From Patescibacteria group bacterium (GTDB lineage: Bacteria > Patescibacteriota > Minisyncoccia > Moranbacterales > GWC2-37-73), in contig DASVYU010000015.1 in the NCBI GenBank assembly GCA_036391995.1, positions 350 to 64,349 on the forward strand: 64,000 bases of DNA, given 5' to 3'. The first letter of the stretch is position 1, and each line of letters begins with the position of its first letter. The position numbers and the translations under genes were made by a program. This document shows, piece after piece, positions 51,408-52,631 of the stretch. The notes beneath the pieces are model-generated. The model was not told the DNA's origin, searched no databases, and saw only the letters and a list, made by a program, of their open reading frames with translations.

Positions 51408-52631
51408 TTACATCCTTTCACCAAGCAGGCGCATGAGCGTCAGATAGAAATGCAGATTGTGCATCGAAGCGAGCCTTAAAAACAGCGGCTCGTTGGTTTT
51501 GAGCAAATGATTAAGATAAGCCCGTGTATAATTCTTACATGTATAGCAGTCGCATTGGGGATCAATCGGCCCGAAGTCTTCTCTGAACTTCTCGTTGCTT
51601 ATATTTATCGTTTCATAGAAATTTTTCTCAACGGAGTTCAACTCCGATTCGGAGTTGAACTCCGTTTTCACAGCCTCTTTACTTTTCCAAACGAACAAAC
51701 GTCCATGTCTTCCTTCGCGAGTCGGGATTACGCAATCAAACATATCCATGCCAGCATTGACCGCGCTCACGAGTTCTTCAGGTTTTCCCAGACCCATCAG
51801 ATAGCGCGGCTTGTCTTTGGGCAAAAGCGGCACGACCCACTCCAAGATCTCATAGAGATGCTTCCTGGGTTCTCCAACAGCTACCCCGCCTATGGCATAA
51901 CCATCAAAATCAAGTGCCACCAATTGGCGCGCAGATTCTTTGCGCAAATCTTCATAGATACTGCCTTGCACAATCGCAAACAGCAGCGGCCTTTCCTCCT
52001 TGGAAAGATGTGCTGTTTTTTGTTGGAAATAATCAAGACATCTTTTCGCCCAGCGCGTGGTAAGTTCTAAGGATTTGGCAGCATATTCATGCGTAGTCGG
52101 GTACGGAGGACATTCATCCAGCACCATGATTATGTCACTGCCCAGATTAAGCTGTATGTCGATGGATTTCTCCGGTGACATGAAATGCTTTTTGCCATCA
52201 ATAGGGTCAATGAATTGCACGCCTTCTTCCGTAAGCTTCACCCTGTTAAATGATTTTGCGACAGGCAAAATCCCGCCTTTGGCGGATTTAACAGGGTAAA
52301 CACCGCTAGCACCAAAATTCTTTTCCGCCCGCGCGCCCAAAGAGAACACTTGATAGCCTCCAGAATCAGTCAAAATAGGCTTTTTCCAATTCATGAATTT
52401 ATGCAGGCCGCCAGCTTTCTTGATCAGATCATCGCCAGGACGCAGCCAGAGGTGATAGGTGTTGCCAAGCGCGATTTCGGCGCCCACGCCTTCCAGATCC
52501 TCAGGAGAAATATTCTTGACCGCACCCTTTGTGGCGATCGGCATAAAAAACGGAGTGTTGACGACTCCGTTTCTGGTCTGGACCTTACCGATCCTTTTAC
52601 TGCCGATTTGTGATTCCAAAATAAACATCAC
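51408..52631 (-). CDS. tgt: queuine tRNA-ribosyltransferase, carrying an in-frame palindromic-element insertion
   Basis: 407 aa. [15 protein letters not shown] ... and a C-terminal zinc CxCxxC...H. Residues [12 protein letters not shown] are encoded by the palindrome at 51630-51666. Confidence 0.9.
51630..51666. repeat. palindromic repeat element copy 2 (aacggagttcaactccg att cggagttgaactccgtt), in-frame inside tgt
   Basis: Same family as 5610-5646; the consensus is cggagYtcaactccgaWtcggagttgaRctccg. Confidence 0.85.

Follow-up and report, generated by a model that had tools for sequence, protein, structure and literature searches.

Several classes of small palindromic DNA have been described in bacteria, and they frame the element analyzed here: a perfect 37-bp palindrome lying in frame within tgt, the gene for queuine tRNA-ribosyltransferase (Tgt), on a 64,000-nucleotide stretch of a Moranbacterales genome (GCA_036391995.1, contig DASVYU010000015.1, positions 350 to 64,349; this whole stretch is hereafter called the window). 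The closest parallel is provided by the repetitive extragenic palindromes (REPs) of Pseudomonas, E. coli and Stenotrophomonas and the REP-associated tyrosine transposases (RAYT or TnpA-REP; PMC3116915, PMC8266576, PMC5581495). REPs occur as singlets and as inverted doublets (REPINs), which fold into one long hairpin and in which compensatory changes are common (PMC3116915). The tnpA genes bordered by REPs are known as REPtrons (PMC8266576). The characterized TnpA-REP enzymes require a GTAG tag (PMC8266576), and CGTC is the tag of another REP super-family (PMC3733652). Our analysis indicates that the Tgt palindrome probably represents one copy of a REPIN-like miniature element, a REP doublet native to Candidatus Moraniibacteriota, that was spread by a Y1 enzyme and has its hairpin kept at the nucleic-acid level.

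Other described systems share some of its properties. Intragenic REP dimers are documented (PMC3733652): in Opitutus terrae, Rickettsia conorii and others, GTAG and CGTC REPs lie in frame in housekeeping genes, DNA repair genes included, as singlets and as head-to-head dimers, and add some 10-30 residues without an evident functional theme (Di Nocera et al. 2013, PMC3733652). Those dimers are tagged and have 3-nt tails, whereas the Moranbacteria family is untagged and built on a CGGAG/CTCCG stem. Rickettsia palindromic elements (RPEs; Ogata et al. 2000, via PMC10969869) are likewise palindromic selfish DNA in frame in unrelated essential genes and tolerated at the protein surface. RPEs measure about 100-150 bp and encode 30-50 residues, with no dedicated transposase known, whereas the Moranbacteria element spans 33-37 bp, has a singlet/doublet architecture and an associated Y1 gene, and is unrelated in sequence and host. 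In-frame palindromic repeats in housekeeping genes are already known from these two precedents. What is new is an untagged CGGAG hairpin family with a very small doublet, a host from the Candidate Phyla Radiation (CPR) and a doublet embedded in a transposase open reading frame (ORF). The REP/REPIN-RAYT systems characterized so far are almost all proteobacterial and extragenic, and within the library searched we found no paper linking RAYTs or REPs to CPR bacteria.

A dispersed family of hairpin doublets

The unit of the family is a 15-nt hairpin singlet composed of CGGAG, a 5-nt loop and CTCCG. Two inverted singlets with AAT or ATT between them form a doublet of 33 nt, or 11 codons (CGGAG-N5-CTCCG-AWT-CGGAG-N5-CTCCG). 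The tgt copy (copy 2; 51630-51666, minus strand) is such a doublet, AACGGAGTTCAACTCCGA-T-TCGGAGTTGAACTCCGTT, a perfect palindrome whose two 18-nt arms enclose a single central base (17+3+17 describes it equally well). Its 33-nt family core (51632-51664) consists of a left singlet, CGGAG-TTCAA-CTCCG (51632-51646), itself a 7+1+7 palindrome, and a right singlet, CGGAG-TTGAA-CTCCG (51650-51664), which is the left one inverted; ATT on the plus strand separates the two. The coding strand reads ACG GAG TTC AAC TCC GAA TCG GAG TTG AAC TCC GTT and specifies 12 residues (Tgt 323-334), preceded by (K). The gene itself occupies 51408-52631 on the minus strand and codes for a 407-residue protein (Pfam TGT, E 2e-145). 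A further perfect 37-bp palindrome, of the majority type (copy 1; 5610-5646, minus strand), lies in frame as SELNSDSELSSD within rnhB, which codes for the 241-residue RNase HII (5064-5789, minus strand); its plus strand reads CGGAG-CTCAA-CTCCG AAT CGGAG-TTGAG-CTCCG. The original prediction had taken the Tgt palindrome for the second in-frame copy of one element, which agrees with these data.

Copies 1 and 2, 46 kb apart, are the only two members of the CGGAG family in the 64 kb of the window and also its longest perfect short-spacer palindromes, 18-nt arms occurring twice. None of 100 shuffles gave a match to the palindrome pattern, and the longest perfect arm in a Markov simulation of 60 windows measured 12 nt, so a chance origin of the two copies is excluded. 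The hairpin predicted for copy 2 has an energy of -29.4 kcal/mol as RNA (z = -7.6) and of -19.8 kcal/mol as single-stranded DNA (ssDNA). The doublet is open in two of the three frames on both strands, with a TGA in the third, and owing to palindromy both strands read alike. The inserted segment may comprise 33, 36 or, with A/T flanks, up to 45 nt. Compared with the empty site of P0002, the closest Tgt orthologue (81% identity over gap-poor columns), it amounts to 13 aa; other alignments are ambiguous because the loops of both Tgt and RNase HII are hypervariable.

The family was traced by scanning one genome per prokaryotic species for the exact inner 21-mer TCAACTCCGAWTCGGAGTTGA, with the outer arms left free. 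Twelve loci were found. Eleven of them, all with the full 33-nt core, belong to metagenome-assembled genomes (MAGs), eight titled Candidatus Moraniibacteriota/Moranbacteria and three 'uncultured bacterium'; the twelfth, in Natronoflexus, matches by chance and has arms of just 10 nt. A metagenome scan contributed 17 further loci, including one chance match of the same kind. Since the exact inner 21-mer was required in both scans, inner-arm variation is under-sampled in the resulting set (L001-L029), and variants with inner-arm changes were obtained by protein-guided look-ups. Altogether we compiled 32 distinct doublets, nearly all from Moranbacteria assemblies. Inner-core doublets number up to three per MAG and eight in one metagenome sample. 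Viral contigs searched with a degenerate doublet pattern gave no match.

Roughly two thirds of the doublets found are intragenic. The host ORFs code for AtpA, LeuRS, RecG, RlmN, RsmI, a FolC/Mur-ligase protein, a HypF-like protein, RNase HII, Tgt and a Y1_Tnp protein, and in every one of them the reading frame is identical ([SPT]E[LF][NSD]S[DE]SE[LS][SN]S), the second open frame being unused. About nine copies occupy short intergenic spacers; one of these (L002) fills the 48 bp between two convergent genes. In tiny, gene-dense CPR genomes a hairpin repeat persists largely in frame within essential genes. The spacers AAT and ATT occur in about equal numbers across the doublets, as expected from either spacer inversion or insertion in both orientations. 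In the copies within RecG (L004 2739-2785 and L024), LeuRS (L005 and L025) and the HypF-like protein (L008 and L017), the palindrome runs into A/T flanks (AAAAAAT...ATTTTTT), which extends the arms to as many as 24 nt and places a terminator-like hairpin followed by a sense-strand T run in the middle of the ORF.

Perfect palindromes can arise as library artefacts, and a palindromic chimera or an adaptor might in principle have produced those seen here. However, the element recurs at orthologous sites of assemblies made independently in separate projects (NCBI MAGs, JGI, ENA and Logan), its reading frame is always kept and its flanks have diverged. We therefore regard an assembly or sequencing artefact as practically negligible. 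Two other repeat types were considered for the window copies and rejected: a CRISPR-like array (two copies 46 kb apart, no arrays) and the PARCEL palindromic coding repeats, whose description as a tandem 25-residue repeat tract (PMC2996958) does not fit.

Paired substitutions and constraint on the hairpin

Position pairs are given in the numbering of the 37-nt coding strand. Copies 1 and 2 differ at pairs 2/36 (T:A versus A:T) and 8/30 (C:G versus T:A) and at the unpaired center, position 19 (T versus A). Both arm differences are thus paired, as had been claimed from the two copies alone, with the qualification that 2/36 lies outside the conserved 33-nt core, at a variable margin; in other copies this outer pair is often non-complementary (10 of 31 distinct copies). 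Within the core, the 32 doublets display 12 double-sided changes at four pairs, a single U.G pair (L035), two unpaired arm cells (L005 and L007) and two more at the loop-closing pair. The observed covariation score was reached by none of 500 shuffles, and slid registers collapse. Arm pairing is therefore strongly favored but not absolute: the expectation that arm substitutions are always paired holds for most of them and fails for the one-sided changes of L005 and L007 and for the T.G pair of L035. Variation is confined almost wholly to the 5-nt loops of the singlets. The CGGAG/CTCCG stems hardly vary, a sign that recognition depends on sequence in addition to structure.

The comparison of orthologues reveals the same at individual genes. 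Only two of 120 Tgt orthologues contain the element, the window protein (P0001) and P0065. The P0065 copy, AACGGAGTTCGACTCCGA-A-TCGGAGTCGAACTCCGTT, is again perfect and differs from the window copy by an A:T to G:C change at 11/27 that is non-synonymous on both arms (N to D together with L to S). Between orthologues the element is identical at 34 of 36 nt in Tgt and 33 of 36 in RNase HII, whereas outside the element the two genes reach 69.5% and 67.7%. At third codon positions identity is 12/12 (Tgt) and 10/12 (RNase HII) within the element and 42% and 46% elsewhere.

A tight clade of RNase HII proteins (P0246, P0258, P0261, P0264, P0273, P0301 and P0338; 82-92% aa identity) makes it possible to follow such changes in place. 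Four of its members, read as DNA, have a common junction (TTTC before the element and AGGAG after it) with different arms inside: CTCAA/TTGAG in L029, CTCAG/CTGAG in L038, CTAAG/CTTAG with a 6-nt spacer in L040 and a lone singlet in L039. The clade thus records in-situ paired changes at 12/26 and 10/28 with the junction unchanged, and it offers a ready data set for separating homogenization by template switching from selection. In L039 (419-433; RNase HII of P0338), a single singlet, CGGAGCTGAGCTCCG, stands where close relatives have a doublet; this looks like either an in-frame 18-nt loss of one arm and the spacer or an ancestral singlet state.

It might be argued that selection acts on the peptide SELNS[D/E]SELSS as a protein motif, for instance an acidic/serine linker or a phosphorylation site, and that the palindrome is a by-product of codon choice in a near-tandem peptide repeat. 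The use of one frame only in ten unrelated host genes, though a second is open, would agree with this, as would the hydrophilic character of the peptide and its location in low-confidence loops of the models. However, selection on the peptide does not account for the full conservation of third codon positions between the two Tgt carriers, and identical DNA is also present in spacers between genes and, in singlet form, outside ORFs. Moreover, paired changes alter the peptide (N to D with L to S; N to S) while the hairpin is preserved, and most orthologues do not have the motif. We find this explanation very improbable. The original prediction had placed the constraint on the DNA or RNA hairpin rather than on the peptide, and the occurrence of the same core in at least 10 unrelated genes as well as in intergenic DNA, the third-position identities, the paired non-synonymous changes and the RNase HII clade all support it. 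It had also named the finding that would speak against it, namely two copies only with a conserved peptide; instead, many copies exist in related genomes, and 118 of the 120 Tgt orthologues have no such peptide. Paired and sometimes non-synonymous changes of this kind represent a clean natural case of constraint at the nucleic-acid level prevailing over that at the protein level.

Paired changes need not reflect selection. Template switching during replication is known to homogenize the arms of inverted repeats and to invert their spacers (PMC8604942, PMC7202029), and the Ripley model of quasipalindrome template switching explains paired changes, perfect arms and the AAT/ATT exchange without selection, multi-residue protein changes included (PMC7202029, PMC8604942). 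Yet being a mutational process, it leaves both the dispersal of one 33-mer and the invariance of its stems unexplained.

A role of the hairpin in host mRNAs was also considered. Conceivable functions are those of an RNase III or stability element, of a translational pause site and of an antisense terminator, and the family would then be a domesticated regulatory module and not a selfish repeat. Its RNA hairpin is indeed of high stability (-29 to -34 kcal/mol, z about -7.6), G.U pairing on one strand (in L005, the LeuRS coding strand) is compatible with the one-sided changes of L005 and L035, copies at orthologous sites are conserved relative to their flanks, and intergenic copies stand at gene ends, L002 between convergent genes being an example. 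On the other hand, the host genes are unrelated and most orthologues, 118 of 120 in the case of Tgt, do without the element. At gathering thresholds Rfam gave no match at copy 1 or 2. An intrinsic terminator at copy 2 was rejected: no terminator-like site scored between 51300 and 52000 on either strand, and on the coding strand the stem is followed by no more than TT. A promoter scan around copy 2 returned nothing. Furthermore, nearly all pairs are Watson-Crick on both strands, which describes a palindrome at the DNA level and exceeds what RNA would need, and an mRNA role does not predict the tight association with a Y1 gene described below. We consider such a role unlikely.

Y1 transposase-like genes bordered by the repeats

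Seven distinct loci in related assemblies contain a gene of about 215-250 codons whose product has a Pfam Y1_Tnp domain (E 1.6e-9, 38 bits versus a cut-off of 23), the HUH motif (NHYHLIL) and the invariant Tyr. At all seven, singlets or doublets lie within or next to the gene, and in six of them copies flank it. In L027 the Y1 gene (235-894) lies between two like-oriented singlets (AAAAAT-CGGAGCTCAACTCCG-ATTTTT) and bears an in-frame doublet just upstream of the HUH motif. The layout is the same in L033/L034 (L033 691-1341) and L036 (1344-2009), with the loop TTCGA in every copy. The 3' singlet of the L033 gene, CGGAGTTGAACTCCG, is identical to an arm of the tgt copy (the left-singlet 15-mer in reverse complement). 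In L018 two full doublets flank the gene (4177-4872), which itself contains a variant doublet and a singlet. These two flanking doublets (4114-4175 and 4951-5010) share some 20 further bases on one side (CCGGAAGGTGGRTTTTGRAAAAA), so the repeated unit at this locus is longer than the doublet. In the available sequence of L001, as in that of L016, a single singlet flanks the gene, and only intra-ORF copies were seen in L015 and L035. Flanking and internal copies vary together in their loop, which is CTCAA in L027 and TTCGA in L033 and L036.

The Y1 gene of these loci always bears a doublet a short way ahead of its HUH motif. In 120 Y1 homologues (P0121-P0240), the site preceding this motif nearly always codes for a peptide that derives from a palindrome and is lineage-specific (SELNSESELSSD, SEFDSDSESNSE, SELSSGAPELSSE, GSSTPMGVELP and GGSTSIMEVEPP are examples), and a singlet is often present in the C-terminal coding part as well. 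An AlphaFold model of the Y1 protein (mean predicted local distance difference test, pLDDT, 87.5) places the pre-HUH peptide in a disordered loop. The best PDB match of this model by Foldseek is 4er8_A, the E. coli REP-associated tyrosine transposase on a REP hairpin (E 4.8e-7, TM 0.71); the TnpA proteins of IS608 and ISDra2 come next. The arrangement of the Y1 gene between like-oriented subterminal hairpins and, presumably, an ssDNA-hairpin chemistry are shared with these IS200/IS605 insertion sequences. Unlike them, the Moranbacteria system gives no evidence of a multicopy full-length insertion sequence or of a tnpB partner, and the abundant, mobile-looking unit is the doublet alone. With the REPIN/RAYT systems it shares inverted doublets that form one long hairpin, the coexistence of singlets, compensatory changes that keep the hairpin and the REPtron layout around a Y1/HUH gene. 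It differs from them in the size of the element (33-37 nt, with about 70-110 nt in REPINs), in its many intra-ORF copies, the characterized REPs being almost all extragenic, in the doublet inside the Y1 coding sequence and in its CPR host.

We infer from this association that the doublets are mobilized by the Y1 protein. The enzyme would recognize the ssDNA hairpin and spread doublets, of which the harmless ones would survive, either in short intergenic spacers or at in-frame, stop-free sites in permissive surface loops such as that of Tgt. In-frame copies would add 11 codons, translated as a hydrophilic peptide that the host protein tolerates. The hairpin would then be kept by template switching between the arms during replication, which homogenizes them and may flip the spacer, by selection for a hairpin usable by the transposase, as for REPINs (PMC3116915), or by both. 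In this way both the stem sequence and its palindromy would be held at the nucleic-acid level.

Real repeats could, alternatively, have been dispersed without the Y1 enzyme, through gene conversion or recombination, by another enzyme or by hairpin duplication through template switching, with the Y1 gene being merely a permissive or preferred target. Mobilization by Y1 is, after all, an indirect conclusion, and the Y1 ORF holds in-frame copies just as other host genes do. CGTC-type REPs have been reported without a dedicated transposase (PMC3733652), and template switching alone explains arm homogenization and the AAT/ATT flip (PMC8604942). Against this, all seven Y1 loci have copies in or beside the gene, six being flanked in the manner of IS200/IS605 ends or REPtrons, and loop variants co-vary between flanks and internal copy. 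Furthermore, the fold predicted for the Y1 protein matches that of an enzyme crystallized on a REP hairpin. A Moranbacteria genome has by our estimate about a thousand genes, and on this basis seven Y1 loci among some 30 element-bearing ones are far above the expectation for one gene per genome. Dispersal independent of Y1 seems to us improbable, if slightly less so than the mRNA role.

Mobilization by the Y1 enzyme remains our preferred explanation, and several observations weigh against it. The window contains neither a Y1 gene nor singlets (tblastn of Y1 proteins against it returned only the element peptides), and the link to the transposase rests on related assemblies. The Y1 protein scores 39.9 bits on the NCBIfam equivalog REP_Tyr_transpos, below the cut-off of 80, and neither its single sequence nor a 36-sequence profile gave a significant PDB match. 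The GTAG and CGTC tags are missing beside the hairpins, which are flanked by A/T runs (AAAAAT...ATTTTT) or host codons. The 3-nt spacer of the doublet is far shorter than that of the REPINs described. No recent insertion or excision polymorphism was found between near-identical genomes, every near-identical pair of loci keeping the copy. Finally, the exclusive use of one of two open frames in ten unrelated host genes is without explanation; target preference or selection could be responsible.

More tentatively, Moranbacteria and related Parcubacteria may possess a previously undescribed, untagged REP-RAYT system with a self-embedded doublet and a role in loop insertion, a wider proposal that we hold to be possible, though doubtful. 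The transposase ORF may always carry its cognate doublet in a disordered loop fixed in place just before the HUH motif, with the doublet and the flanking singlets diversifying together. Being self-embedded, this doublet could act as a master copy or as a site of autoregulation. The 33-nt doublets, together with several sister families of palindromes, could also be a chief source of the lineage-specific loop insertions of essential CPR proteins such as Tgt, RNase HII, AtpA and LeuRS. The Y1 gene with its embedded cognate hairpin constitutes a simple system for biochemical tests.

Insertion loops of Tgt and RNase HII and other features of the window

In Moranbacteria Tgt proteins, the segment from GRLFxW to FYETINI varies from about 9 to more than 60 residues and includes many different palindrome-derived peptides. 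The hypervariable loop of the window protein (residues 316-341) replaces a 3-residue turn of the solved Tgt structures, and the AlphaFold model has lowered confidence there (block mean pLDDT 57). P0002, the closest orthologue, has an empty site. P0001 and P0065 are not sisters in the Tgt tree, where the smallest clade joining the two carriers takes in 75 of the 120 sequences. As 73 of these 75 do not have the element, two independent insertions into one permissive loop appear more parsimonious than many losses. A second hot spot, for this and other palindromic insertions, is the RNase HII loop that follows GPVVAAAV. This loop is likewise hypervariable, and no fewer than four distinct lineages contain carriers (the window protein, P0251, P0247 and the tight clade described above). 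Patchy presence among orthologues and non-sister carriers suggest that the insertions were independent.

Both loops are insertion hot spots across the orthologues compared (Tgt P0002-P0120; RNase HII P0242-P0360, loop after GPVVA.A), and they contain other palindrome-like peptides as well (FQFPISNFQ, CLPAGR / CHPELDSGS, ETQNFASL, DDRLLITDD and KYEIQDTK), which suggests further in-frame repeat families in the Moranbacteria phylum. The CGGAG family may account for part of the puzzling loop insertions in CPR proteins. For annotation, low-complexity inserts of 11-12 residues of this kind are to be treated as repeat-derived and not as lineage-specific protein features.

Another, unrelated in-frame structured insertion is present in the window Tgt (52237-52300, minus strand; 20 residues, about 110-129). 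It consists of an outer inverted repeat (52237-52251 / 52286-52300) around two small hairpins, CCGCC-AAA-GGCGG and GATTTTGC-ctgtc-GCAAAATC, and pLDDT is below 50 throughout its residues. The insertion is missing from P0002, and related 'PVKS...FNRV' forms occur in P0005, P0011, P0025 and P0037. In the RNase HII of L029 (P0261), another long insertion (…ETCLPDRQARNKFQTNGNNQNPNTKENLKS…), which contains a palindrome-like peptide of the CLPDRQA type, follows downstream of the element; the window protein does not have it.

Elsewhere in the window, the sole Rfam matches are two adjacent tRNA genes (26907-27071, minus strand). Four further perfect inverted repeats (42807-42836, 44738-44773, 43565-43607 and 61942-61969) are not akin to the CGGAG family. 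One of them is a 15+15 palindrome of A and T only, and the other three are terminator-like hairpins flanked by A/T runs, exemplified by AAGCAAAAAACCGCCT / AGGCGGTTTTTTGCTT.

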